64,000 nt of DNA, taken from Candidatus Gottesmanbacteria bacterium. GTDB taxonomy: Bacteria; Patescibacteriota; Microgenomatia; UBA10105; UBA927. Under the pieces are notes generated by a model. That model did not search any database. It saw only the letters and a list, made by a program, of their open reading frames with translations, and had not been told where the DNA came from. This document shows positions 5,951-58,200 of this stretch, one piece after another (positions within the stretch are counted from its first letter, which is position 1; the number at the start of each line of letters is the position of its first letter). Made by a program: the position numbers and the translations under genes. Location: contig JAUXTO010000022.1 in NCBI GenBank assembly GCA_030679255.1, forward strand, positions 64,915 to 128,914, given 5' to 3'.

Positions 5951-6026
5951 AATACAACTCTTACCAGAGTATCTACTATTGCCATAGGCAATCCAGTTCT
6001 ATACCCAATCGAAGATAAATGCAAGT

Positions 6027-7277
6027 TTAGCGGTGTAAATGCGCTTCAACGAAGTCCCTGAGTTCCTTCTTAAACCGCTCTTTCCCAAATTTTTCCGCCT
6101 GCGCTCTACATTGATTTTCCCAATTTCTCCCCAATTTCTCCCGCGAAGCGGGACCGAATCTCCCTAACGCCCCCACCAAACTCTCCACCGTCGGCGTGTC
6201 AAATAATATTCCCGTCTTTCCATCGATGACCGTCTCGACGATTCCCCCCTGGGCAAGGGCAATGACGGGCGTCCCATGGGCCATCGCCTCGACCGGTACC
6301 ATCCCAAAATCCTCATCGAGAGCACAAAAGATGAGCGCCTTGGCCCCGGCATACAGTCTCCCCAACTTCTCATCGGATACGGATCCCAAAAACTCCACGT
6401 TTCCTAAATTCTTGCTTTGTAAGGCCTGGCCTTGCGAAGCTAGCTTTTTGAGAGATTCCTCTTCTTTTCCCGTCCCGACGATCTTAAGCGGCAATCCAAG
6501 TTTGGCACACGCCGCTATCGCCAAATCCACCCGCTTACTGTACGTGAGCCTCCCAACTGATAAATAATATTCCTTTTTATGAACTTGGAATTTGGTGCTT
6601 GGGATTTGTTTGGAATTTGGTGCTTGGGATTTGGGATTTACTTCAATCGGTGGATATATCACCGTGCTTTCCCTCCGATAAAACTTCGTGACTCTCCTAG
6701 CCGTCTCCTTGGAGTTGGCCACAAAGTAATCCACTTTTTGTGCAGTTTCCCAGTCATAATGCCGCAGGAAAAAATTGACAACCGCCGCATACACTCGCAC
6801 GATCCAATATTTCTGCAAATCACTCCCCGTCGCATACCCATAGAGATTCCTCGGCGGATGGTGGATATAGCAGACGTGGACGGTCTTCCGTCCCGTCCCG
6901 AGCGAAGTCGAGGGATCTGACAACTGACGACTGACGACTGACGACTCTCTCACCTTCACTCCTCTACACATAAACCACCCGCTACTACTGATCACCACGT
7001 CGTAACCGGAAAGATCGAAACTCCCCCATATCCACGGCGCGAGGAACCGGAGGGGTGAAATAAATTTTTTGATGAACCAGTGGTGCTGCACCCAACTCGT
7101 CCGTATGTCCCAAGACTTAAATAACTCCACTTTACCCGCCGGAGCCCGGGCGAAGGAGGGCCAGTCAACGAAGGAGGTATATAGCGGCGCATCCGGCCAC
7201 ATCTCATGCAAGGTTTCCACTACTCTTTCGGCGCCTCCGTATTCTCTGAGATAGTCATGGACTAAGGCAACTTTCAT
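6027..7277 (-). CDS. glycosyltransferase family 4 (GT-B fold)
   Basis: N-terminal MKVALVHDYLREYGGAERV and C-terminal EDFGMVPVEAMAHGTPVIA motifs are characteristic of GT4. Contains the in-frame repeat insertion ...NPKSQAPNSKQIPSTKFQ... and a (tgacgac)3 repeat at 6905-6935. Confidence 0.8.
   Translation of the reverse strand: MKVALVHDYLREYGGAERVVETLHEMWPDAPLYTSFVDWPSFARAPAGKVELFKSWDIRTSWVQHHWFIKKFISPLRFLAPWIWGSFDLSGYDVVISSSGWFMCRGVKVRESSVVSRQLSDPSTSLGTGRKTVHVCYIHHPPRNLYGYATGSDLQKYWIVRVYAAVVNFFLRHYDWETAQKVDYFVANSKETARRVTKFYRRESTVIYPPIEVNPKSQAPNSKQIPSTKFQVHKKEYYLSVGRLTYSKRVDLAIAACAKLGLPLKIVGTGKEEESLKKLASQGQALQSKNLGNVEFLGSVSDEKLGRLYAGAKALIFCALDEDFGMVPVEAMAHGTPVIALAQGGIVETVIDGKTGILFDTPTVESLVGALGRFGPASREKLGRNWENQCRAQAEKFGKERFKKELRDFVEAHLHR
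6585..6640. repeat. two tandem copies of 24-nt unit TTGGAATTTGGTGCTTGGGATTTG inside the GT4 coding sequence (encodes KSQAPNSKQIPSTKF on minus strand)
   Basis: Same unit, also in tandem, at 8805-8859 inside the Pol I exonuclease gene. Confidence 0.7.
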
Positions 7278-7474
7278 ATAATGATAAGAAACCGCAGCCC
7301 CGTACTCACGCTCTTCGCGAGCGCGAGGCTGTAAGCCTCCGGCGCGAAGTAAGTGCAGTACTGGGGCATGGATTCGAGCACCCGCTCCGCCCCCCCATAC
7401 TCCCGAAGATAATCATGAACCAATGCTACTTTCATAATTTGACAATTGACGCTATCATGATATACTATTTTCAT
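7274..7474 (-). pseudogene. fragment duplicating the first ~20 codons of a GT4 gene (MKVALVHDYLREYGGAERV), then diverging
   Basis: Residues 14-32 of this ORF are identical at protein level to the N-terminus of the adjacent GT4 gene. Nucleotide identity is only ~70% (synonymous drift), so this is an old paralog remnant. Confidence 0.4.
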
Positions 7475-7556
7475 AGTCGGATTCGAAGCGACCCCTCGCC
7501 GTAAAAGCGGAGAGTGATGTCGATAAGACCGGCTTTTTTTATTCCCCGACCTCTTT

Positions 7557-8006
7557 CTATTGTATATACTTCAAAATCTTTTTCTCCGAAATTCGTTTCG
7601 TCTCAGCCAATCGCCCCTTTGATCGATGAACGCGCCAGGCAAGCTTGTGAGCCGCAGCTAGTTTTCCAATCCTCACGAAACGGACGCTAGGAATTCTTTT
7701 TATCCGATTTTGGAAAAACAATTTTTTGAGTGTCTCTTCTATTATCTCGTTCTTCCCTGTATATTCTTCATCAATCTTCAATATATCTATCGTGTGGTCT
7801 TCAATCAAAATAAATAATATGACACTGAATATAATTGCCGGTAAATCCTTCGCGGGAATAAAACTGTTACGACGAAGGTGGACGATAAGCTTTCTTTTTG
7901 CTCCGGCGTTCACAAACACCGCACCGCTTATTCCATTTGCGAAAGCTATTGCTGTCCCCGTGCTCAAATCCTCAACCCTACCGCTTTGATCAACTTCTAT
8001 TATCAT
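7557..8006 (-). CDS. hypothetical protein
   Basis: 149-aa ORF with coding-like composition; no motif recognised. Confidence 0.3.
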   Translation of the reverse strand: MIIEVDQSGRVEDLSTGTAIAFANGISGAVFVNAGAKRKLIVHLRRNSFIPAKDLPAIIFSVILFILIEDHTIDILKIDEEYTGKNEIIEETLKKLFFQNRIKRIPSVRFVRIGKLAAAHKLAWRVHRSKGRLAETKRISEKKILKYIQ

Positions 8007-8010
8007 AGTA

Positions 8011-9213
8011 TCAAAATAACTCTTGCTGCTCCCCCGCTTTCTCCTTCGCCCGCCTCGCCCGCCATAGCTTCAGCGGCGGCGGGCCTTCCTGTCCTCCCGT
8101 CTTATCGTCTTGTACCCCAGTTAATCGTTTAAGAAGCGACGGAAAATGAAACTCGCCAAGCTTCTCCCTGGCTTCCGGCGTATCAAGCGTTTCAAGCGGC
8201 GCAAGCTCCCCCATTTTTACCGGCACATCAGTCCGTATCGTCGCCAAATCTTTACTCATCCTCGCCATCTCCTCCCCGTTTCGAAGTTTTTCAATGACTC
8301 CCGCTGACAGCTGACCCGCTTCGCCGGAGCTCCCGCTTCGCCGATTCAGCGAGGCGAGTAAGCGAGGCGAGGAGCTGTGAGCTGAGAGCTTTTTCCCCTC
8401 CCTTTTTCCTGCTTTCTGTTTACCCAGCACCCTAATGCCCCGGTCGTTAGCCCAAGCACCATTTGAATGGTGCTGGGTAATGTCGTGGGTGCTGGGTTTA
8501 TTGTTTACTGTCCTATATAACGCATCAATATCCCCATAGTGTGTGATGATCCCCACCGCCGTCTTTGGCCCAATTCCCGCCACCCCTGGATAATTATCCG
8601 AGCTGTCCCCCATGAGGGCCTTGAGTTCCGGTATCTGTTTCGGGGTCACCCCGAGCCGCTCCACGACCTCCACTTCTCCATAGAGTTTCCCCTCCGACAA
8701 TCCCTTCGTCGGCATAAACACTTTCACGCGCCGCGCGTCATCGACTAACTGCAATATATCCTTATCCCCCGTCACGATGATCACTTCATCAATGTTTGAA
8801 ACATTTGAATTTGGTGCTTGGGATTTGTTTGGAATTTGGTGCTTGGGATTTGTGATTTGTCGGCACACCGTGCCGATCACATCATCCGCCTCATACCCCG
8901 CTTTATCATAAATAGGTATCCCAAACGCCCGGACCATATCCTGCACTTTTGGAATTTGCGATACGAGATCCGCATCCATCTCCGGCCGCTTGCCCTGATA
9001 GTCTTTATAGAGTGACTTTCGGAATGTCTTCTCCGGCCGGTCAAACGCTACGGCCATGTGGGTGGGTTTGAGATCTTGAAATAATTTGATGAGGATCGAC
9101 ACAAATCCGTACACGGCGTTCACCGGCTGACCGTCCGGAGCAGTAAGGGGCGGCAGCGCATGGTACGCGCGGTGGAGGATAGCGTTCCCATCAATGAGGA
9201 CGAGCCTATTCAT
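8011..9213 (-). CDS. 5'-3' exonuclease (DNA polymerase I N-terminal/FEN-like domain only), with two in-frame insertions
   Basis: LVLIDGNAILHRAYHA, AFDRPEKTFR, GYEADDVIGT, VTGDKDILQLV and a helix-hairpin-helix segment GDSSDNYPGVAGIGPKTA are classic Pol I 5'-nuclease motifs. No polymerase domain follows. Start moved to MNRLVLIDGN. Confidence 0.8.
   Translation of the reverse strand: MNRLVLIDGNAILHRAYHALPPLTAPDGQPVNAVYGFVSILIKLFQDLKPTHMAVAFDRPEKTFRKSLYKDYQGKRPEMDADLVSQIPKVQDMVRAFGIPIYDKAGYEADDVIGTVCRQITNPKHQIPNKSQAPNSNVSNIDEVIIVTGDKDILQLVDDARRVKVFMPTKGLSEGKLYGEVEVVERLGVTPKQIPELKALMGDSSDNYPGVAGIGPKTAVGIITHYGDIDALYRTVNNKPSTHDITQHHSNGAWANDRGIRVLGKQKAGKREGKKLSAHSSSPRLLASLNRRSGSSGEAGQLSAGVIEKLRNGEEMARMSKDLATIRTDVPVKMGELAPLETLDTPEAREKLGEFHFPSLLKRLTGVQDDKTGGQEGPPPLKLWRARRAKEKAGEQQELF
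8805..8859. repeat. two tandem copies of the TTGGAATTTGGTGCTTGGGATTTG unit inside the 5'-3' exonuclease coding sequence (encodes QIPNKSQAPNSN)
   Basis: Nucleotide identity with 6585-6640. In frame in both host genes. Confidence 0.7.
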
Positions 9214-9220
9214 GAAGATA

Positions 9221-11131
9221 TTATAATGTATTCGCGCTACTTCGGTGCTTGAGTCCACCCATCAAGGCTTCAAACTCTTCGCTCTCAAGCGTTTCTTTTT
9301 TCACGAGCTCCGCGGCGATGATATCCAGTTTCTTTTTATTCTTCTTGAGGATTTCTGCAGCTTTCTTATACCCTTCATCGATGAGTTTTTTGACTTCCGT
9401 GTCTATTTTCCCCTGCATATCCTGAGAAATCGTATTTTGCTCCATGTACTGCTTCCCCCACTCCGTCACGTCCATGTGGGGACCAAAGTTGATGGGTCCA
9501 ATCTCGCTCATCCCAAACTCCATCACCATGTATTTAGCTATTCTCGTCGCTTGATCGATGTCGTTGGCTGCCCCACTTGTCATTTCCTTAAATATTAATT
9601 GCTCGGCAGCTCTCCCTCCCATGGTCATGGCGATTTCTTCTATGAGACGCGACTTGGTTTCGTGCAGCCGGTCCGTTTCCGGTGGGGCCATGGTGTACCC
9701 CAAAGCCATACCGCGCGACACGATGCTGATCCGGTGGACGATATCCAAATTGGGACTAAAATACGAAACCACCGCGTGTCCTGCTTCATGATAGGCCGTC
9801 ATTTTGCGGTCAAGATCCGATTGCAGCCGCTTCTTCTCGGGCCCTAACTTCACTTTTGTTGCGGCCTCCTCGATATCCCCATAATCTATGACCTCTTTAT
9901 TATGCCGTGCGGCAAATATCGCCGCTTCGTTGAGCATATTCTCGAGATCCGCGCCGCTAAACCCGACCGTTCGCTTGGACACTTTATCCCAATCCATAGG
10001 CGTCGTAAACGGCTTGCCTTTGGCGTGGATAGCCAGGATATCTTTGCGTCCCGCCATATCAGGAAGGTCGAGGACCACTCGGCGGTCAAACCTTCCGGGC
10101 CGCAGAAGCGCCGGATCCAGGAGATCCCCGCGGTTGGTGGCAGCCACGATGAGAACCGTCGTATTGGGCTCAAACCCATCCATTTCAACCAGAATCTGAT
10201 TGAGCGTTTGTTCCCGTTCATCATGCCCACCCATAAGTCCGACGCTACGCATCCTACCTATCGCATCAATTTCATCGATGAAGATGATGCTGGGTGCATT
10301 TTTCTTAGCTTGAGCGAAAAGGTCGCGCACCCGTGCAGCCCCGATCCCCACAAGCATTTCCATGAACTCGCTCCCGGCTATGCTATAGAAGGCCGTCTTG
10401 GCCTCTCCTGCCATGGCTTTGGCAAGCATTGTTTTTCCCGTCCCGCTGGGCCCCACGAGTATGACCCCTTTGGGAGTGCGTGCGCCCAATGCTTTATATT
10501 TATTCGGATTTTTCAGAAAGTCGACGACTTCCTCAAGCTCCTTTTTCGCCTCGTCCACCCCTGCAACATCGGCGAAGGTCACTTTTGGCAAATCTTTTGC
10601 AAATATCCGGGCCTTACTTTGGCCGAACGAAAAAATATTGTCCTGCGCGCCTCTGGCCTGACGGAAAAGAAAGAGGAAAAAAACCACGGTGAGGACTAGT
10701 GGGAGTACATTGGACACGATCCCCATCCACATAGCCCCGGGCGAGAGGTCCTTTACTTTTATCTCGACGGCCTTGGGGTCTACCCCGGCGCCTTCAAAAA
10801 CTTTGAGTAATGATTCTTGCGGCTCCTTATGGGAGATGAATTTCGTGCCATCTTTGTAGTTGATAGTGAGTCGGCTCTCTTCTATTTCAATTTTATCAAT
10901 TTTCCCTTCTTTTACGTCCGTGATGATGGTTGATAATGGCTTCTCCACGAGGTTACTGACCTTATCCCCCAGACTTCCCAGAAGACTCATAAGGATAAAC
11001 GCGATAAAAAGCCCAATGAAGATATTTTTGACGTTAAACTGAAATCCAAACTCCCACACCTTTTTCCCGTGTTTCCCGTTCCCGTTTCCATTCTTGCCAT
11101 TTTTTTTAACAATAGGATGCTTATCTGCCAT
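9221..11131 (-). CDS. ftsH: ATP-dependent zinc metalloprotease FtsH
   Basis: N-terminal TM helices, AAA Walker [12 protein letters not shown] region, zinc site HEAGHAVV. Confidence 0.95.
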
Positions 11132-11385
11132 ATGTTGATATCATTACATTATTAACTCATTCCCACATTCATTGGTCGGATTTGTCGGATTGGTTAAATT
11201 GGCCGGATTATATTATTGTACGATGCACAAGTATACCACGAAGCTAATTCGAATGCATGAGCGATGGCCACTCCTCCCCTACTTTCTCCTACTTCCTCCT
11301 ACATCCTCCTAATCCCTCCTAATCTCTCCGACGCTCCCGTAATTTCCCGTACCTCCCCCTAGTGCTATAATCATCACTATCGACT

Positions 11386-15013: not shown

Positions 15014-15196
15014 ACCAGGTAGTAGAATTTCGCTGTTCCTGTACGGAACGGAAGTCTACTCTCCAACGTGGTTATCCACTCATTCACCAGGTAATGTTTT
15101 CAATGTGTCTTCACATTGAGCGAAATTTCACTACCTGGCATATATACGAAGTATATACTTTATATATATCCTGTCAAGCCAAATCATACTATAGGA

Positions 15197-15229
15197 TTGA
15201 CTTTAACTCTCTCTCTCTCTCTGTAAAAT
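15197..15229 (+). promoter_or_regulatory. sigma70-like promoter with (CT)n spacer: TTGACT - CT-rich spacer - TGTAAAAT
   Basis: TTGACT at 15197-15202 and TG-TAAAAT at 15222-15229. The 21-nt spacer is longer than optimal. A Shine-Dalgarno AAGGAG lies before the ATG at 15431. Confidence 0.35.
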
Positions 15230-15430
15230 CCCTCCTACAGGTCGCACAAACCCCGCTCTACGCTGCGGTATGTTTGTTGATCTGGGCACCTTTACAGTTT
15301 GAGAAAAGCGGAACGTGACTATTCTCCTTTTCCCCCATTGGATAGCAACATGCGCATACACCATCTTGTGCCTATGTTTCTATCCAATGGAGATAGGAAA
15401 ATTGAAATAAATTATTCAAGGAGAATAATC

Positions 15431-16626: not shown

Positions 16627-18654
16627 TTATCGTATCTTCGCTCCCACGGGGAGACCTTCGGCAGAAACAAACAGGGGCTTTGCCGTTTTCAAAGCCTGGC
16701 TTTGATCTTCTGGAAAGCCTGGCTTTGAGTCGACCGCCAATATCATCCCCTGGCTCTCCTCATCCATCATTTTTCGCGGCGCAAGATTGGTGATAAAGAA
16801 AAATTGCTTATTGAGGAAGTCTTCGGGTGTATACCCAAACCCCCGCACGCCGGTAAAAATAATGCGAAGTTCTTTTTCATCCCCCTTACCTCCCTTATCT
16901 CCCCCATCTCCCTGATCTCCCTTATTCTTCAACCCAAAATCCACCACGAGCCGTATGAGTTTCTCACTCCCCTCTTTGTTGGTCGCCTCAACGACTTTCC
17001 CCACCCTTAGCTCCACCCTGCCAAATTCTTCAATGGTTATGACGCCATCATTTTCTCCGTTGCCTAATTGTTTTGCAGTCTTTATTGGTAGTATTGGTAG
17101 TATTTGTTTATTGGTAGTATTGGTAGTATTTGAATATTGATTGATAAGTCCCACCGCCTCCCGTACTTCCCGCATTGTCTCCCCTGCAACTATCCTCGCT
17201 TTTGCCGCCCCGTCCTCTAGTATTTTCTTGACGGCCGCAGGATTTGCTGCCAATTCCTTATACGCTTTTCTCGCATTTGCAAAGTATTTAAGTAATGATT
17301 CATACAGGTAATTTTTTACCTCAACATCTGCTATCTGACCCTTTCTATAAGCTTCTTTCAGTTCGTTGTTTTTTGTTTTTTGTCCAAAATAATCTAGGTA
17401 GGTAAAGACCATGTTGCCCTCCGTGTGTCCGGGGTCCGTTGCATGAATTCTGGTCGGATCCGTGTACGTACTCATCACCTGCTTTCGTATTTTTTCCTCA
17501 TCGTCAAAGATGCTGATGATATTTCCCAAGCTCTTGCTCATCTTCCGTTTCCCATCTGTTCCCAACACCGCCCCCACCTCCTCCGGTATATACGCCTCCG
17601 GCAGTTTGAATACTGCGGTCTTGCGCGTCCCAAGCAAAGTCGAGGGATAAATCTTATTGAAGCGTTCTGCGATATCGCGTGTAATCTCCACGTGCTGTTT
17701 CTGGTCTTTCCCCACCGGCACGAGGTCCGGTTTATAAAGAAGGATATCCGCAGCCATAAGGACGGGATAATTAAATAAACCGAGATTAATATCCTCTTCC
17801 AGGATATTTCTTTCGAGCTTATCCTTATATGCATGGGCGCGCTTGATGAGGCCCAAAGGTGTCACATTATTGAGTATTGTTTGGAGGTCAGGATGAAGCC
17901 CAATATCTGATTGACGATAAAATATCAGGTTGCCAAACTCCTTTTCGGAAAGAAATCCCTTAAGGAGCGCGAGCTCATTGAGGATGAGCGTTTCAGAGTT
18001 GTGTTGGAGTTGAGTCCTATCCTGTATCGTGGTTAACGCGTGTAAATCTGCCACAAACAAAAAGCACTCGTTCGTTTTTGCAAGCTCAATAAACTGCTTG
18101 ACTGCACCTAAATAGTTCCCAATATGCAGACTCCCATCTCCACTTGGCGTGATACCCGACACTAGTCGTTTCCCTTGTACTACACGTTTCAACTCGTTGA
18201 ATGCAAAATCTCCAACCATCCCCCCGTTGACCTTCGGCATGTCAAGAGCATTCATCACCATGCCAAGCGTTCTCATGCCGCCGATGCCATATGCTTTCCC
18301 AATCGTCAATACTTTTGCATCGATAAAATACGGAATAGCAAGTCCCAAGTACGGCACAAGTCCGGCTTCTGTTCCCAAAGTTTTCAGCTCTGCTTTGGAA
18401 GCAAATGCAAGCGTCTTGACCACTGCGAGTTTTTTGAATTTTTCCTGATCTATCTGGGTATCGGCGCACTTGACTGCGGCGACTATCCCCTTCTCTGTTT
18501 TGTAGAGTATCGTTACCATCGCCTGTGCAAGGGAAATGTGATGAAACGCGGCGTGTGACGGCACGTCAAACGGCAAATCCTCCGGCAAGGGGATAAATTT
18601 GTAATCCACCTTATTCTCATTTAGTATTTTTTCGATGGTATCTTTTAGATTCAT
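16627..18654 (-). CDS. trpS: tryptophanyl-tRNA synthetase with N-terminal YbaK/ProX-like deacylase domain and C-terminal EMAP/Trbp111-type tRNA-binding domain
   Basis: SGITPSGDGSLHIGNYLGA (HIGH-type) and KRKMSKSLGN (KMSKS) match TrpRS. The C-terminal VELRVGKVVEA...NLAPRKMMDEESQGMILA is the OB-fold tRNA-binding module. In-frame TTNTTN and KPGF repeat segments are present. Confidence 0.85.
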   Translation of the reverse strand: MNLKDTIEKILNENKVDYKFIPLPEDLPFDVPSHAAFHHISLAQAMVTILYKTEKGIVAAVKCADTQIDQEKFKKLAVVKTLAFASKAELKTLGTEAGLVPYLGLAIPYFIDAKVLTIGKAYGIGGMRTLGMVMNALDMPKVNGGMVGDFAFNELKRVVQGKRLVSGITPSGDGSLHIGNYLGAVKQFIELAKTNECFLFVADLHALTTIQDRTQLQHNSETLILNELALLKGFLSEKEFGNLIFYRQSDIGLHPDLQTILNNVTPLGLIKRAHAYKDKLERNILEEDINLGLFNYPVLMAADILLYKPDLVPVGKDQKQHVEITRDIAERFNKIYPSTLLGTRKTAVFKLPEAYIPEEVGAVLGTDGKRKMSKSLGNIISIFDDEEKIRKQVMSTYTDPTRIHATDPGHTEGNMVFTYLDYFGQKTKNNELKEAYRKGQIADVEVKNYLYESLLKYFANARKAYKELAANPAAVKKILEDGAAKARIVAGETMREVREAVGLINQYSNTTNTTNKQILPILPIKTAKQLGNGENDGVITIEEFGRVELRVGKVVEATNKEGSEKLIRLVVDFGLKNKGDQGDGGDKGGKGDEKELRIIFTGVRGFGYTPEDFLNKQFFFITNLAPRKMMDEESQGMILAVDSKPGFPEDQSQALKTAKPLFVSAEGLPVGAKIR
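17084..17131. repeat. (GGTAGTATT)n tandem repeat inside trpS (encodes TTNTTN on minus strand)
   Basis: Same 9-nt unit in tandem at 38422-38461 and 38561-38590, inside two other genes. Confidence 0.65.
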
Positions 18655-21477: not shown

Positions 21478-21616
21478 TGGGGTTATTATATCTTTTTCGG
21501 GTCATCATGTTGAGGCTATCATGTCCAGCACTTCGCGCTGTCCACCAGCCTCATGAGGGCGGAGGCAGGTTTGAGGTCATTATGCGCGAAGCGCGCACCG
21601 ACCTCACGAGGGTGGA

Positions 21617-21647
21617 ATAAAAAAATCCGCTATTAGCGGATTTTTTT
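21617..21647. terminator. bidirectional rho-independent terminator (A8-ATCCGCTATTAGCGGAT-T7), member of a repeated module
   Basis: Perfect 6-bp stem with 4-nt loop flanked by A-run and T-run. Same module inverted at 28024-28052. Both are bracketed by the inverted repeat GAGGGT...ACCCTC. Confidence 0.5.
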
Positions 21648-22036
21648 ATTTGATACCCTCGGTTGCGGGGCTGGGAGTCGCACCCAGCCTAGAAGATTAT
21701 GCACGTGTTTCTCCCATTCCTGAGAGTGTCGGACTATATCTTTCCCGCTAAGCGGGATTCGGCGTATAGTCTCTACGGATTTCCGCCAACTGGCGGACCT
21801 TTCCTCGGTATTACCCTTCAATATTGAATGGGGTTTCACCGATATAGCCGAATTCTACCCTGAGATATTTCTCTGAGCAGCCCATAATCGAGCCTTCTGT
21901 GCAACTGTACACTACCCCGCGGTACATGAAAGTACTCTCGTATACTATCAAACGAACTACGGAGCGTCAACGCAGGCTTGAACTTTTTTCTGTTATTCAA
22001 TGAAAGATGCTTTCATTTTTATGCTAAAATCAACTC

Positions 22037-27245: not shown

Positions 27246-27329
27246 GTGATAGTTTATACTATCCCCGAATAATCGTCAAGTAGCACTTTTCACTTTACCC
27301 TTTTCACTCTTGACTTTTTTTCTATAGGC

Positions 27330-27358
27330 TTGACTTTTCCTCTCTCTCTCTGTAAAAT
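27330..27358 (+). promoter_or_regulatory. sigma70-like promoter TTGACT-17 nt (CT)n spacer-TAAAAT
   Basis: TTGACT at 27330-27335, 17-nt spacer, TAAAAT at 27353-27358, 9 nt before the ATG at 27368. A second TTGACT and TTTTCACT direct repeats lie upstream (27287-27315). Confidence 0.5.
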
Positions 27359-27367
27359 CAGGTCATT

Positions 27368-27760
27368 ATGATATCCGAATCAAATTCAGAACAAGTATTG
27401 CTTCAATTAATTCGAGCCGCATCCAAGCCCGAGGTCGATGCGTATCAACGCGAGGAGGATGAAGCAGTCATCGCTGCCCTAAAGGACTTATCCCCCGATG
27501 ACGCGCGTGACTTGATCTTGGAGATGGCAGGCCGAGAAGCAAAAGCCAACGACTTCCACGCACGGATGAGAGAAATCGGATGGCATTTTAGCCTCGACAC
27601 ATCCCCAGATGCACTACATTTAGGTCAAAACGAACATGGGTTCCCGATTATCGGATCAGTTGCAGAATTTCCCGGCGGATCATTTTCCATTCGAATAAAT
27701 GATATTGCGAGGGTAATAGGTAGAGAAGAAATGTTGCATGAACTATCTTCACCTAAATAG
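27368..27760 (+). CDS. hypothetical protein
   Basis: 130-aa ORF immediately downstream of the consensus promoter; no motif recognised. Confidence 0.4.
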   Translation: MISESNSEQVLLQLIRAASKPEVDAYQREEDEAVIAALKDLSPDDARDLILEMAGREAKANDFHARMREIGWHFSLDTSPDALHLGQNEHGFPIIGSVAEFPGGSFSIRINDIARVIGREEMLHELSSPK

Positions 27761-27936: not shown

Positions 27937-28008
27937 GTCAGGGTAGCTCAGTGGTAGAGCACCAGTATCATAAACTGGCCGTCGAGAGTCCGATCCTCTC
28001 CCCTGACA
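27937..28008 (+). tRNA. tRNA-Met/Ile2 (anticodon CAT), elongator-type
   Basis: Acceptor GTCAGGG/CCCTGAC; D arm TA GCTC AGTGGTA GAGC; anticodon stem CCAGT/ACTGG with loop ATCATAA; T stem GAGAG/CTCTC with loop TCCGATC. No 3-GC initiator signature. Confidence 0.85.
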
Positions 28009-28023
28009 CCGAGGGTATCAAAC

Positions 28024-28052
28024 AAAAAATTCCGCATTTAGCGGATTTTTTT
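28024..28052. terminator. bidirectional rho-independent terminator (A6-TCCGCATTTAGCGGA-T7)
   Basis: Stem-loop immediately after tRNA-Met and after the convergent ftsB-like gene. Same module as 21617-21647. Confidence 0.55.
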
Positions 28053-28109
28053 GTTCCACCCTCGTCCGGCTGATGTGAAGCACATAAGTGCTGAAACATG
28101 ATAGCCGGA

Positions 28110-28463
28110 TCAAAAAAACAACCTCCACCACCTCTTCCAATTGGGTATTATTTCTTCCTTTTCTTCGTTTGTTTGGTCATTGGGATTTGTGATTTGAGAT
28201 TTGGGGAGTAATACGACAGTCTCCCCTTCCTTCCCCAATCCCAGCCGATTCCTCGCCTCCTGCTCGATAAACTCGGGGCTCTGGGCATAGTCAAGCTCCT
28301 TTTGAAGCCGCGCGTGCTCAGCCTCTACACGCCGGAGTACGGCCTGCCGCTCCCCTAGGATATCGCGACGGCGCCACAAATCCCAGATCGACCGCGATAG
28401 GTTTACGATCATAAACGCGCTCACCACGATGATAATAATTCGTATTACTCTCCATTTCTCCAT
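28110..28463 (-). CDS. ftsB: septum formation initiator FtsB/DivIC family
   Basis: N-terminal TM helix, coiled coil, conserved EFIEQEARNRLGLGKEGETVV motif. C-terminal tail KSQITNPNDQ resembles the KSQ repeat family. Confidence 0.7.
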   Translation of the reverse strand: MEKWRVIRIIIIVVSAFMIVNLSRSIWDLWRRRDILGERQAVLRRVEAEHARLQKELDYAQSPEFIEQEARNRLGLGKEGETVVLLPKSQITNPNDQTNEEKEEIIPNWKRWWRLFF

Positions 28464-28490: not shown

Positions 28491-28539
28491 TCTGTTTTCT
28501 GTTATCTGTTATCTGCTATCTGTTATCTGTTATCTGATC
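28491..28539. repeat. 7 tandem copies of heptamer TCTGTTA/TCTGCTA in the divergent ftsB-xerC intergenic region
   Basis: Directly visible tandem array. Confidence 0.6.
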
Positions 28540-38028: not shown

Positions 38029-38481
38029 TTAGACTTTTGGACTTTTGACTAATGTTCTGTGCAATTGTTTCAGTCTGCGTACGCAAAATTCCGCGAGCCA
38101 ACGCCACGAACTCGTGACGCTTTGCTTGAGTCCTAACGCAATCTGATCGTCCGTAAGCGGCAAGGTCACGGGCGGAGCCACCGGCACCACTGCGTCCCCG
38201 ATCGCCTTCACGCCCATTTGCGCGACAGGCTGCGGCAGTTGCACCGTCGTGGGCTGCGTGGACACTCCTGCTGCCGCTACTTCCTTCGGAAGTTCCATCT
38301 CTTTGCCCGTTAGGTCTTTAAGTCCCGGCTCTTCACGTCCCAATCCTCCTACTTCGAATTCTTTCCCACTAATACTTCTACCCGATTGCCCACCCATTGA
38401 TTGAATTGGGCTAATTTGATTATTGGTAGTATTGGTAATATTTGTAGTATTGGTAGTATTGTCAGCAGATGAGCCATCCAT
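38029..38481 (-). CDS. hypothetical protein with N-terminal (TTN)n low-complexity segment
   Basis: ADNTTNTTNITNTTN is encoded by an (AATACTACC)n repeat. P/V/A-rich middle region. Confidence 0.35.
   Translation of the reverse strand: MDGSSADNTTNTTNITNTTNNQISPIQSMGGQSGRSISGKEFEVGGLGREEPGLKDLTGKEMELPKEVAAAGVSTQPTTVQLPQPVAQMGVKAIGDAVVPVAPPVTLPLTDDQIALGLKQSVTSSWRWLAEFCVRRLKQLHRTLVKSPKV
38422..38461. repeat. (GGTAGTATT)n tandem repeat inside ORF 38029-38481
   Basis: See 17084-17131. Confidence 0.65.
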
Positions 38482-38493
38482 ACTTTTATCATA

Positions 38494-40488
38494 TCACGAA
38501 GCATACGCAAAAATGACTGCGTGTTGAGGTAATAGATTCTTTCTTTTTTTCATTTGACGATTGGTAGTATTGGTAGTATTGGTAGTATTTTGCGCCCCCT
38601 GCTCCCGCAGTGCCGTTAAATAGTGAATAATCGACAAAAGTACCCACGGTGTCTCTTCTTTGTCTTGCAAGACATCGTCTTGCGAAGCTAGACGATGTCT
38701 TATGAAAGTACTCTTTGACGTACCGGCTTCTTTTCGACCAAGAATCATCCACACCATCCACGCAAACCGTACTCCGACAAAAACCATGCGCTCTTGCAAT
38801 CGCACATCCTCAGCAAAACCAGGCTTTGCTCTTCGAAAGCCCGGCTTTCGTAACACACGTTTTTCCTTTTCGCTTCGCGAGGCACTTCCTTGCGAAGCAA
38901 ACTTTGCAAATTCCGTATCTGCCACCGCTAACTTCACCCAAACTATTTTTTCGCGTCTTGGCATTCGCATCCGGTCAAGAGTCCGTTCCGCTCTCCGTAT
39001 CATCTGGTACAATTTTCTTATCTGTTGTTTTTCCCGCTTTTCCAAAATTATCGGTGTCAATAATTCTGCGGCCGCAACTTTTTTGATCCCTTTCTCCATG
39101 TTCATTTTTCTTCTCTCTTTCCGTTTACGCTTATCGCGATCATTGAAAGTAAAAATACGACCTTCGGCCGTCACCTCCAGATGCAGCTTCAACCGCTTCC
39201 TCCTCGCCTTCAGTTCTTTTGTCTCCCAGCTTCGCAAGACCACCTCTTGCGAAGCTAAACGATTCTTTTTTACTTCCCGTTTTGCTTTCCGTAATTCCTT
39301 ATTCTTTCTTCTTAATTCTTTTTTCGCGTGCCGTGCGATACTCTTTTCTACCGCCCGGACCGGTGTGGGCAATTGTTCTGCAATCCGGGCCAGAAGTACC
39401 GGCGCCGCATGCATGGCAAGGCCGGTCTCGGCTATCACGGATAGTGCCCGCGCGTCTCTTTGCATTTGAACATGACGCTTGGCAGTCAACTCAACGACGC
39501 TCACTGGCTTCTCACGGATTTTTGCTAACGTTATGCGCTCGGATGGTTGCCCTCTCCGGCCCTCAAGGACATTCGCTCGTTTCACTACTCCCTCCCCGTG
39601 CATCTCCCTCTGTATCTTTTTACTGCGCAAATAAACCGCCACATCTCTGACCGTTTCGCGCGTATCGTGAAGCACTCTTGATGAAATATCGGTCAACATA
39701 TCCTGGCGGTAATTCTCTTGTGTACTTGCTTGTTTTTGTTGGCGTTCCTGCGGCACCTCTTCTGGCAGACGCGAGTAGGTTTCCTGATGCGACCGGTGAA
39801 TCTTCGTCACCATTGCGTTTTTGATCTCGGCAAAGGAATTGTTTGCATTGGATTGAATTGCCAACACAAATGCTTGTTTTTGGTGCGCGTGCTGATGAAA
39901 CGAAACACTATCTTGCTGTTCAAACGCAGTAAATGACGTACCCGTACGCACATCTTCAATCCGTATATTTTTTCCCAAATCAATTCTTGACCCGTCATAC
40001 CGCGTGGGGTCGGACGCATTCTTCGTCCAAACGGAAAGATAGCGGGACACGATATTGCCGTCCTGATCCAAATGCTGTTCCGGCAAAATAATTTTTTCCG
40101 CGCCCTCAACCGCAAGCCTTGTCGCCTCCCGCAGTGTCGCTGCCTCAAGGGGCGCAGTAGCTTTTATATTCTCCGGCACGAGACTGCTGTATCTCCCTTG
40201 GGTAATATTTGCAGTCATTTCATCCAAACTCACTCCTGTTTCTGTCATCATCTTTCCATCACGAAGTGTGAGCGACCACTGACTTTCCTGTCCTTTTTGT
40301 TCCTGGATCCAACTCCGTATATCTGCGCGCAGATATTGCCGCGCTGTTTCTTCGCCAAGCGTAGCCACGTTCTCCGCGTAGGTTGCGTGAGCGAGTGCAT
40401 TATTCCAACTGTGTCCGCCTTCATCCCCGGCGAGGGCAAATTCTGCCATATCAGAGGATTGCCTCCATCCCTGTCTCCCACGGCGCAA
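38494..40488 (-). CDS. large hypothetical protein with basic K/R-rich C-terminal half
   Basis: 664-aa ORF downstream of the VirB4-like gene. Contains TTNTTN and KPGF repeat segments. Confidence 0.4.
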   Translation of the reverse strand: MRRGRQGWRQSSDMAEFALAGDEGGHSWNNALAHATYAENVATLGEETARQYLRADIRSWIQEQKGQESQWSLTLRDGKMMTETGVSLDEMTANITQGRYSSLVPENIKATAPLEAATLREATRLAVEGAEKIILPEQHLDQDGNIVSRYLSVWTKNASDPTRYDGSRIDLGKNIRIEDVRTGTSFTAFEQQDSVSFHQHAHQKQAFVLAIQSNANNSFAEIKNAMVTKIHRSHQETYSRLPEEVPQERQQKQASTQENYRQDMLTDISSRVLHDTRETVRDVAVYLRSKKIQREMHGEGVVKRANVLEGRRGQPSERITLAKIREKPVSVVELTAKRHVQMQRDARALSVIAETGLAMHAAPVLLARIAEQLPTPVRAVEKSIARHAKKELRRKNKELRKAKREVKKNRLASQEVVLRSWETKELKARRKRLKLHLEVTAEGRIFTFNDRDKRKRKERRKMNMEKGIKKVAAAELLTPIILEKREKQQIRKLYQMIRRAERTLDRMRMPRREKIVWVKLAVADTEFAKFASQGSASRSEKEKRVLRKPGFRRAKPGFAEDVRLQERMVFVGVRFAWMVWMILGRKEAGTSKSTFIRHRLASQDDVLQDKEETPWVLLSIIHYLTALREQGAQNTTNTTNTTNRQMKKRKNLLPQHAVIFAYAS
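38561..38590. repeat. (GGTAGTATT)n tandem repeat inside ORF 38494-40488
   Basis: See 17084-17131. Confidence 0.65.
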
Positions 40489-41137: not shown

Positions 41138-41752
41138 TCATTGGTCGGATTTTTTCGTCCCCCGCCAAACCACTTCTTCCACGTTCTCCTGTTTGTTTAT
41201 AAACCGGGCGAGAACAAAAAACAAGTCCGAAAGCCGATTGAGATACTTTATGATGACCGGATCAATGGATTGTTTCTGTGATAACGCAACCGTTTGCCGT
41301 TCAACACGCCTACAAATCGCCCGGGCAATATGGGTCCGGGCGCCAATCGCCGCTCCGCCTGGTAAAATAAAATTTCTAATCGGCATCAGGTCTTTTTCCA
41401 TCATATCTATGCGCGTCTCCATTTCTTTTGTCCGCGGCTCAAGATCGGCTAAGTGTCCTTTCCCGCCTGCAACGCTATGCGTACCCGCCTGCAGCGATGC
41501 AGCAGCTTCGGGCAGGGCATTGCGGGCAGGCCATCCGGCGAGTGTACTTCCTATGGTGAAGACGTCTGATTGGATCAATTGGAGAAATTGTGATACATCA
41601 GGAACGGAAAATTCCGCAGCGATTAGCCCAATCCAGGAATTCAACTCATCCAGCGACCCGTACACTTCCACGAGCTCCTCGCATTTGAGTACGCGCTTCC
41701 CGCCAAACAGTGATGTGGAGCCGGTATCCCCGGTACGAGTGTAGATGGACAT
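41138..41752 (-). CDS. ATP:cob(I)alamin adenosyltransferase, PduO-type
   Basis: MSIYTRTGDTGSTSLFGGKRV...VEVYGSLDELNS matches the PduO/MMAB N-terminal signature. Confidence 0.85.
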   Translation of the reverse strand: MSIYTRTGDTGSTSLFGGKRVLKCEELVEVYGSLDELNSWIGLIAAEFSVPDVSQFLQLIQSDVFTIGSTLAGWPARNALPEAAASLQAGTHSVAGGKGHLADLEPRTKEMETRIDMMEKDLMPIRNFILPGGAAIGARTHIARAICRRVERQTVALSQKQSIDPVIIKYLNRLSDLFFVLARFINKQENVEEVVWRGTKKSDQ

Positions 41753-57062: not shown

Positions 57063-57110
57063 CTTAGAGTACTCTCTCTCTCTCTCTGGAAATCAAGCTG
57101 CAGGCGCAAA
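57063..57110 (+). repeat. direct repeat R2 (AGTACTCTCTCTCTCTCTGGAAATCAAGCTGCAGGCGCAAATC)
   Basis: Second copy at 58155-58200 (AGTACTCTCTCTCTCTGGAAAATCAAGCGGTGGGTGCGAATC). The two copies bracket cassette paralog B. Confidence 0.6.
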
Positions 57111-58135: not shown

Positions 58136-58154
58136 AATTTTCTCCTACTTGGAT

Positions 58155-58200
58155 AGTACTCTCTCTCTCTGGAAAATCAAGCGGTGGGTGCGAATCAACA
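58155..58200 (+). repeat. direct repeat R2, second copy
   Basis: See 57063-57110. Confidence 0.6.

Follow-up and report, generated by a model that had tools for sequence, protein, structure and literature searches.

A translated heptamer-array repeat in two unrelated genes of Candidatus Gottesmanbacteria that behaves like a Rickettsia palindromic element but is not one

Rickettsia palindromic elements (RPEs) are dispersed repeats that lie in frame in unrelated housekeeping genes and are tolerated at the protein surface; they are about 100-150 bp long, palindromic, confined to Rickettsia and encode a conserved peptide per family (PMC10969869). Degenerate heptamers of Class I (TDNGATT) and Class II (NNTGAGT) build the P6b stem of the Nostoc tRNA-Leu(UAA) intron, where arrays have undergone repeated wholesale replacement rather than base-by-base mutation (PMC4476775). 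Families of simple heptameric repeats have been described with GGGAATC in Xanthomonas and GGGGA(T/C)T in Nostoc (PMC4692102) and with TAACTGA in Beggiatoaceae, cyanobacteria and Bacteroidetes (PMC4679880), and such repeats are abundant, mostly intergenic and patchily distributed, with a function that is unknown (PMC4692102, PMC4679880). Here we describe a short tandem repeat in a 64-kb stretch of Candidatus Gottesmanbacteria (Microgenomates, candidate phyla radiation, CPR) DNA, called the window below, which lies inside a gene for a family 4 glycosyltransferase (GT4) and inside a gene for a stand-alone 5'-3' exonuclease. Our verdict is that the repeat behaves like RPEs but is not one, and that it is copied or homogenised and tolerated in protein loops. 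We give a probability of about one half to the reading that both 55-nt segments represent the same member of a widely distributed family of anchored heptamer repeats, copied or homogenised by templated events and filtered by selection.

Based on a pattern search that allowed up to three mismatches, the 24-mer TTGGAATTTGGTGCTTGGGATTTG was found at positions 6585-6608, 6610-6633 and 8829-8852 and, with one mismatch (TTTG for TTGG), at 8804-8827, and 100 shuffles of the window gave no match to it. An earlier note on this DNA had described 24-nt units in tandem in both genes. The tandem pair was confirmed in each gene, but Tandem Repeats Finder gave a period of 25 nt (6585-6633, 2.0 copies, 100% matches), and the first exonuclease unit starts at 8804 and not at 8805. 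The repeat unit is TTGGAATTTGGTGCTTGGGATTTGT, the 24-mer plus a T spacer. In the GT4 gene the array (6585..6639, minus strand) consists of two such units (6585-6609 and 6610-6634) and a GGGATTT tail and encodes amino acids (aa) 213-231, VNPKSQAPNSKQIPSTKFQ, and in the exonuclease gene the array (8804..8858, minus strand) consists of the one-mismatch unit 8804-8828, the unit 8829-8853 and a TGATTT tail and encodes QITNPKHQIPNKSQAPNSN, aa 134-152 of the 415-aa open reading frame (ORF). The 55-nt stretches 6585-6639 and 8804-8858 are 96% identical and the two genes have an exact match of 45 nt in common, which bears out the statement that unrelated genes contain one and the same nucleotide segment in frame. 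Tandem Repeats Finder reported periods of 7, 14 and 25 in the window arrays, and TTGG anchors spaced by 7 nt were found at only three array sites in the window, with 1.9 expected. A third array (28173..28203, minus strand) lies in the gene of the DivIC/FtsB septum formation initiator (28110..28463, minus strand, 117 aa; Pfam DivIC at aa 11-88). It is a weakly related heptamer run of the TDNGATT type, TTGGGATTTGTGATTTGAGATTTGG, which is read as PKSQITNPNDQ in the C-terminal tail directly after the Pfam domain. This tail had been noted before as a relative of the repeat, and it is real and shares the exact 17-mer TTGGGATTTGTGATTTG with the exonuclease copy, but it is only a marginal member of the family (E = 2.8 with the nhmmer family profile).

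The GT4 gene (6027..7277, minus strand, 416 aa) encodes the Pfam domains Glyco_transf_4 (aa 13-213) and Glycos_transf_1 (aa 232-373), and the FEN-like exonuclease gene (8011..9213, minus strand, 400 aa according to NCBI, with an ORF that runs to 9258) encodes 5_3_exonuc_N (aa 18-203, profile positions 1-164) together with 5_3_exonuc. Both copies are antisense within these minus-strand ORFs and in frame. The repeat had been said to preserve the reading frame in both hosts, and this holds for the whole inserts because their length is a multiple of 3, although the single units do not each preserve it: a period of 25 shifts the frame by one per unit, and the four window units use all three frames. 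The GT4 array reads N-P-KSQAPNSK and then QIPSTKFQ, and the exonuclease array reads QIT-NPKHQIPN and then KSQAPNSN. The KSQAPNS peptide that had been noted in both proteins is common to them because GT4 unit 1 and exonuclease unit 2 chance on the same frame; the other units read differently and there is no conserved peptide. As the units are read in all three frames, it is the DNA that is conserved and not the peptide, and judged from the sequences the nucleotide sequence is the conserved entity and the peptide a by-product. On the C/A-rich strand a perfect tandem of the unit translates as TNPKHQIPNKSQAPNSKQIPSTKFQ, and the canonical unit is free of stop codons in all six frames. The peptides of the C/A-rich strand are hydrophilic and rich in Pro, Asn, Ser, Lys and Gln in all three frames (mean hydropathy -1.60), whereas the opposite strand (LEFGAWDLFGIWCLGFVWNLVLGIC, mean hydropathy +1.47) would give hydrophobic peptides of the LEFGAWDLFGIWCLGF type.

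In comparison to Mycobacterium smegmatis Pol I (PDB 6vde) the exonuclease has a 17-residue insertion exactly at the array. We mapped both inserts on AlphaFold2 models, which were built on ortholog alignments and are predictions. In these models aa 137-157 of the exonuclease form a coil between helix 124-136 and strand 158-162, with a predicted local distance difference test score (pLDDT) below 50 at 145-153, and aa 209-233 of GT4 form a coil with pLDDT < 50 between strands 205-207 and 237-241, the GT4 site being the linker that joins the two Rossmann-like domains. Both inserts occupy predicted disordered surface loops or linkers that are compatible with the fold, in agreement with the earlier proposal that the repeat is tolerated in such places.

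Among Gottesmanbacteria orthologs both sites were hypervariable, being filled, empty or occupied by other inserts (the loci compared are labelled with L-numbers). At the exonuclease site, L123 and L121 have the array as in the window, L137 has a different variant of the heptamer family, L124 has a same-length diverged homolog that includes the non-array tail, and other relatives have an unrelated insert of the hairpin type (HDEHMM..SRA.HV); the site is empty in L136 (between CRQITG and E) and in L126 (between CQKISG and E). Together with the gap against PDB 6vde, the empty sites identify the segment as an insertion relative to some orthologs, as had been proposed. At the GT4 site, the first 36 array nucleotides of L126 are those of the window (an identical run of 52 nt with the flank) and have the canonical cross-phylum form; L127 and L129 have variants, L124 has a minimal version, L137 a GC-rich palindrome and the closest relatives unrelated sequences. 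The two sites are filled independently across genomes; L126, for example, is empty at the exonuclease site and filled at the GT4 site, and L124 the reverse. In relatives with 70-80% identity, the orthologous positions in GT4 and the exonuclease held unrelated arrays or hairpins.

The exonuclease array of L123 is identical to that of the window (68/68). Its flanks are 79.1% identical to those of the window when 492 nt of conserved blocks are compared; on either side of the array the match is 125/150, and the gene-wide identity is 77.4%. The corresponding array and flank values were 62/68 and 76.2% for L121 and 48/68 and 66.5% for L124, and the flanks of the empty sites were 81.3% (L136) and 78.5% (L126) identical to the window. 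Mismatches between the window and L123 restart right at the insert borders, which suggests that the array is younger than its carrier genes (copied, converted or exchanged) or is constrained at the nucleotide level. The array of L124 has diverged about as much as its flanks, so that nucleotide constraint, if any, is not absolute and the exonuclease insert is of some antiquity. The surroundings of the L124 and L137 arrays were searched for further members of the family and gave chance 9-mers only. An assembly artefact was rejected: the frame is kept, and the arrays occur at orthologous positions in independent assemblies and in long-read metagenome-assembled genomes (MAGs) and isolates.

The exonuclease gene also has a second in-frame insert (8400..8510, minus strand), which is palindromic and lies within the C-terminal SAM-fold domain. 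Its RNA hairpin has a folding energy of -38.4 kcal/mol (z = -4.15), and the insert falls within a 54-residue stretch with pLDDT < 50 (aa 261-314), was present in this genome only among 21 aligned orthologs and reuses the family word CCCAAGCACC (8451-8460, complement GGTGCTTGGG). Similarly, GT4 has a second disordered insert (6880-6950, aa 111-128, pLDDT < 50), composed of (CTGACGA)x4.3 and the 23-mer CGTCCCGAGCGAAGTCGAGGGAT, which occurs again with 91% identity at 17626-17648 inside a TyrRS-like gene. A small palindromic family around CTTGCGAAGC has copies at 6419-6448, 38667-38696 and 39234-39263, with CTTGCGAAGC also at 38889; the copy in GT4 encodes ASQGQALQSKN, which is present in several orthologs and missing from others. 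Upstream of GT4, a short ORF (7274-7474) repeats the first 19 residues of GT4 (MKVALVHDYLREYGGAERV), followed by GC-rich hairpin-like sequence, and the end of this ORF is the real GT4 start. Because the ortholog P0177 has an equivalent N-terminal duplication, fused in frame, the region looks like an old insertion with duplication of the GT4 5' end.

All four window units share the 21-mer GAATTTGGTGCTTGGGATTTG, and exact matches to it in a collection of species-representative genomes were found in at least 120 contigs. Among the matches listed, the carriers belong to Bacteroidota, Acidobacteriota/Aminicenantes, Planctomycetota, Verrucomicrobiota, Desulfobacterota, Myxococcales, Omnitrophota, WOR-3, Stahlbacteria, several CPR lineages and one archaeal MAG (Methanophagales). 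Three cultured Flavobacteriaceae have the 21-mer as well: Planktosalinus lacus CGMCC 1.12924, Salinimicrobium sp. HB62 and Aequorivita soesokkakensis RSSK-12. In the contexts of the matches listed, the family is made of heptamers in which TTGG is constant and the other positions are degenerate, in the order of abundance TTGGAAT > TTGGGAT > TTGGTGC > TTGGTCA, and the canonical core is GGAATTT(A/G)TTTG-GAATTTGGTGCTTGGGATTTG-G(G/A)ATTT. The earlier note had not recognised that the unit is part of such a cross-phylum family. The 21-mer is placed at the 3' end of the array, with TTTG before it and GAATTT after it conserved, beyond which the information content is zero. Extended cores recur across phyla among the 120 loci listed, a 31-mer in 51 of them, a 38-mer in 36 and a 41-mer in 18.

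An ORF that spans the array with at least 60 aa on each side was found for 14 of the 126 matches listed, and going by the lack of such an ORF most copies in other phyla are intergenic. Where inspected, the arrays in Aminicenantes and in the isolates were arms of long imperfect intergenic hairpins, such as L011:3835-4030 with -71.4 kcal/mol (z = -7.9). These hairpins lie among ordinary housekeeping genes, some of them in terminator-like positions; the genes flanked by array pairs are housekeeping genes in L007 and L070, and the one in L011 had no Pfam match. No Rfam family was found in window positions 6000-9300 or in five array-bearing loci. Plasmid and phage collections gave no array match by BLAST, possibly owing to the low-complexity filter, and a scan of viral contigs gave one match only, in a portal protein tail.

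In Aminicenantes, anchored degenerate heptamer arrays with other cores (ACCGTNA, CGTCACG, CCTTACG and TGACAC) adjoin the TTGG arrays in L011 (3780-3830 and 5870-6050) and in other loci, and whole intergenic regions are mosaics of such arrays. Arrays also often adjoin a short GC-rich hairpin, as in L132 (about 1880-1990, in a FemAB gene), L002, L013, L018 and L107.

Six further in-frame hosts from other organisms were verified by Pfam. The FemAB protein of L132/L133 contains three 25-nt units (75 nt), in which each frame is read in turn. In the Paceibacterota locus L016 the array lies in the anticodon-binding domain of a class I aminoacyl-tRNA synthetase, which we take to be LeuRS; in L052 it lies in the catalytic domain of a ValRS-like synthetase, in L106 in the head domain of a CCA-adding enzyme, in L004 (WOR-3) in a C-terminal sorting domain of the type IX secretion system (T9SS), and in L130 in the C-terminal tail of a viral portal protein. 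In-frame copies are known in at least eight unrelated protein families, the window included. The C/A-rich strand (CCAAAT) is the sense strand in all six further hosts, and no opposite-orientation ORF spanning an array had Pfam support around the array. We read the constant frame and the hydrophilic orientation of the coding copies as selection acting on the translated inserts. Used as a query against proteins, a synthetic 50-aa peptide that covers the array in three frames gave one weak match, and an exhaustive phmmer search with the 33-aa GT4 segment gave one match (E = 7e-4), the short low-complexity query being too weak. Beside the array of three 25-nt units, the FemAB gene of L132 also contains a hairpin, CCTTGCTTT..AAAGCAAGG, which is translated in frame as APCFTEAKQG.

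In the explanation that we prefer, the arrays would reach their sites and persist there by templated copying, for which ectopic gene conversion, template switching among members in TTGG register and allele exchange between related lineages are the candidates, and replication slippage within arrays may contribute. Of the copies made, selection would retain only those with an intact frame, the hydrophilic orientation and a position in a loop, with the peptide as a passenger. The length of GT4 between the flanking motifs is 38 aa in L126, equal to that of the window, and 40 aa in L127, and both of these loci have AATTCCAAATTC-type units where the window has a different second GT4 unit. From this difference at equal length we infer that the near-identity of the window copies probably reflects a recent homogenisation of the second GT4 unit and not a new insertion, the likely donor being either GT4 unit 1 or, at a distance of 2.2 kb, the exonuclease array.

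Several observations weigh against this explanation. The 64-kb window contains two significant copies of the family and one weak copy by profile search, none of them intergenic, so that a local donor pool was not demonstrated. The same-length diverged homolog in L124 argues that the exonuclease insert is old and able to evolve in place, and the 100% identity of the array with L123 could reflect purifying selection on nucleotides and not recent copying. The recurrence of the 21-mer across phyla could partly result from combining a restricted heptamer vocabulary. Copying machinery, terminal inverted repeats and target-site duplications were not found at the copies examined.

A bolder form of the explanation sees an actively propagating cross-phylum micro-repeat, a stop-free 25-nt unit that a templated mechanism would copy into the loops of essential genes and into intergenic hairpins, and we regard this as tentative and rather doubtful. 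[quoted passage not shown]

It is unlikely that the repeat is a non-autonomous mobile element, MITE-like or RPE-like, with a trans-acting transposase or recombinase that would recognise the terminal 31-41-mer and independent transpositions into GT4 and the exonuclease. The same core in unrelated genes and across phyla would fit such an element, as would the sharply conserved array end, after which the information drops to zero as at a terminus, the hairpins among the intergenic copies, which resemble inverted repeats, and the filled and empty sites in close relatives with perfect identity confined to the insert. The coding copies, however, are single arms whose length varies from 31 to about 90 nt and which lack inverted partners and target-site duplications, no transposase was found next to the arrays examined, and plasmid and phage collections had no match and viral contigs only one. 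Moreover, the orthologous variants of the same length differ by unit substitutions, which suggests evolution in place. Of the earlier description of a short mobile repeat, the occurrence in unrelated genes holds; its mobility remains putative, as neither terminal inverted repeats nor a target-site duplication or a transposase turned up at the arrays examined.

With the same low probability, the arrays would be a functional nucleic-acid motif under purifying selection that is old at both sites and for which the peptide is irrelevant. Candidates at this level are sites for a single-strand-binding protein that reads heptamers, an unstructured C/A-rich spacer in the mRNA and a structure on the antisense strand, which is G-rich; for heptamer repeats, a role as binding sites of cold-shock-type proteins (PMC4679880) or as G-quadruplex formers that are avoided on coding strands (PMC4692102) has been proposed. 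An array identity of 68/68 against about 79-83% for the adjacent catalytic-domain codons, a 31-41-nt core conserved across phyla, the use of all three frames and the retained insert length in L124 are what such a motif would lead one to expect. Yet equally close relatives lack the array (L136 and L126) or have unrelated inserts at the site, and in L124 array and flanks have diverged to about the same extent; the coding copies had neither an Rfam match nor a stable fold, and a binding partner was not identified.

Independent microsatellite growth in situ, by slippage on chance CAAATC-like seeds with a tolerated restricted vocabulary and without copying, we consider slightly less probable still. 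Seeds are at hand, as upstream of the insert the exonuclease gene has CAAATCAC as its native sequence, also in L136 with its empty site, and in many bacteria no other long simple repeats are as abundant as heptanucleotide ones, as stated in PMC4679880 with reference to Mrazek 2007. The vocabulary is strongly skewed (TTGGAAT > TTGGGAT > TTGGTGC), and the genes in the window have many other short-period arrays. However, slippage gives identical units and those within an array differ, an exact inter-gene match of 45 nt and ordered matches of 31-41 nt across phyla are not expected from it, and the 25-nt supra-unit recurs in the FemAB gene of another organism.

An ancestral linker peptide with a role at the protein level, such as a flexible tether or an epitope, would agree with the position of the segments in linkers, with the segment length kept by several orthologs and with peptides that are hydrophilic and proline-rich like natural linkers, but it is largely refuted and highly improbable, as the same DNA gives three different peptides in three frames, the segment is conserved nucleotide by nucleotide, synonymous positions included, between flanks that change, and close orthologs lack the segment or have unrelated sequences.

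Other repeats were also observed in the window. A second repeat with out-of-frame units has a 26-nt unit, (TATTGGTAG TATTGGTAG TATTTGx) x2.3, at 17081-17139, in the linker between tRNA-synt_1b and tRNA_bind of a TyrRS/TrpRS-type fusion protein (16627-18654), where the units read NTTNTTNK and then ILPILPIK; its 9-mers occur with the same codons in two other ORFs (38421-38461 and 38560-38589) and encode NTTNTTN. Directly upstream of the divIC start codon lies (TCTGTTA)x6.6 (28491-28536), which in the divIC sense is (TAACAGA)n and is one base from the TAACTGA leader repeats of Beggiatoaceae and cyanobacteria. Intergenic CT-dinucleotide runs with conserved flanks (CTATAGGxTTGACTTT..CTCTCTCTCTGTAAAATC) at 15189-15241, 27322-27370, 57072-57104 and 58148-58179 may be a shared promoter or leader module. 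Runs of the 9-mer ATTGGTCGG(ATT), just upstream of ftsH (11171-11209) and at 41140, 45035 and 45061, are another dispersed short-period family in the window. Additionally, an inverted repeat pair (21606-21683 and 27988-28065) consists of 78-nt arms that are 81% complementary and 6.3 kb apart, each of which holds a terminator-like palindrome (AATAAAAAAATCCGC..GCGGATTTTTTTATT).

If the preferred explanation is true, heptamer arrays, which have so far been described as oddities between the genes of cyanobacteria, Xanthomonas and Beggiatoaceae, would belong to one family whose core is common to many phyla. Its members would be able to enter essential genes, such as those for a nuclease, for aminoacyl-tRNA synthetases and for cell-wall enzymes, and to be translated there. 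They would be a source of variation in loop length in the compact CPR genomes and would give a concrete handle on the function and spread of heptanucleotide repeats. The filled and empty orthologous sites and the conservation above that of catalytic-domain codons are directly testable, with the core present in the three cultured Flavobacteriaceae. In practice, heptamer arrays break assemblies, distort marker-gene alignments and, because they contain no stop codons, inflate ORFs.

Compared with the known systems, the window copies and others resemble RPEs in being in frame in unrelated genes and located in predicted disordered loops, and in this respect the analogy drawn in the earlier note was apt. 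It fails in other respects: the window copies are 55 nt long and the coding copies of the family 31-90 nt, made of 25-nt and 7-nt units, and the heptamer family spans many phyla and is mostly intergenic elsewhere, whereas RPEs are confined to Rickettsia. In the mRNA sense the window copies have folding energies of -1.6 kcal/mol (z = -0.55) and -5.2 kcal/mol (z = 0.02), with z taken relative to shuffles. RPE membership was rejected on the lack of a palindrome or hairpin in the coding copies, the length of 55 nt, the use of three frames and the lack of a conserved peptide. Terminal inverted repeats and target-site duplications were found neither at the window copies nor in the filled/empty comparison of the window with L136, and MITE membership was rejected for their lack; no transposase was seen beside the arrays examined, and the array pairs in L007 and L070 enclose housekeeping genes. 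Two exclusions made in the earlier note hold. Inserts of 18-21 aa with no Pfam domain within them are not inteins, which have a Hint domain for splicing, about 130 aa long at the minimum, and conserved junction residues, and head-to-tail units with a 1-nt spacer, two per site and inside ORFs, are not a CRISPR array, which has unique spacers of similar length between direct repeats.

The intergenic members in Aminicenantes, Flavobacteriaceae and others resemble REP sequences and bacterial interspersed mosaic elements (BIMEs) as multi-copy imperfect hairpins between housekeeping genes. REP families, however, are specific to a species or genus and extragenic by definition, whereas the core described here spans phyla and also lies within genes, and no transposase of the REP-associated tyrosine transposase (RAYT) type was seen beside the arrays examined. 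Literature searches with array 14-mers returned chance primer matches only, and in the papers searched no description was found of such arrays translated inside CPR genes. With the simple heptamer repeats the family has in common the 7-nt period, many dispersed copies, a patchy spread across phyla without a known vector, a mostly intergenic position near gene ends and the avoidance of the G-rich strand as coding strand. Those repeats consist of a near-perfect single heptamer, whereas here the units differ, as an anchored degenerate array, and form a conserved higher-order core of 25-41 nt, with copies inside conserved domains of essential genes.

The degenerate heptamers of the Nostoc P6b stem and the STRR (short tandemly repeated repetitive) heptamers of cyanobacteria likewise have 7-mers with a fixed core in arrays that form two hairpin arms, as in the intergenic members in other phyla. 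STRR2 reportedly has the sequence TTGGTCA, which is said to go back to Mazel and colleagues in 1990, and TTGGTCA units are common in the family described here. These systems differ from ours in that they lie in the non-coding DNA of heterocystous cyanobacteria, whereas the present arrays are translated and occur in CPR and other phyla, with the window copies as single arms in coding sequence that lack a complementary arm. The commonest units of the family, TGGAATT and TGGTGCT, fall outside TDNGATT, but the window units TGGGATT, TGTGATT and TGAGATT fit it, and the GT4 and exonuclease sites likewise show replacement of whole arrays. By analogy, the degenerate heptamers of the Nostoc P6b stem are the closest match to the repeat in both sequence grammar and behaviour.

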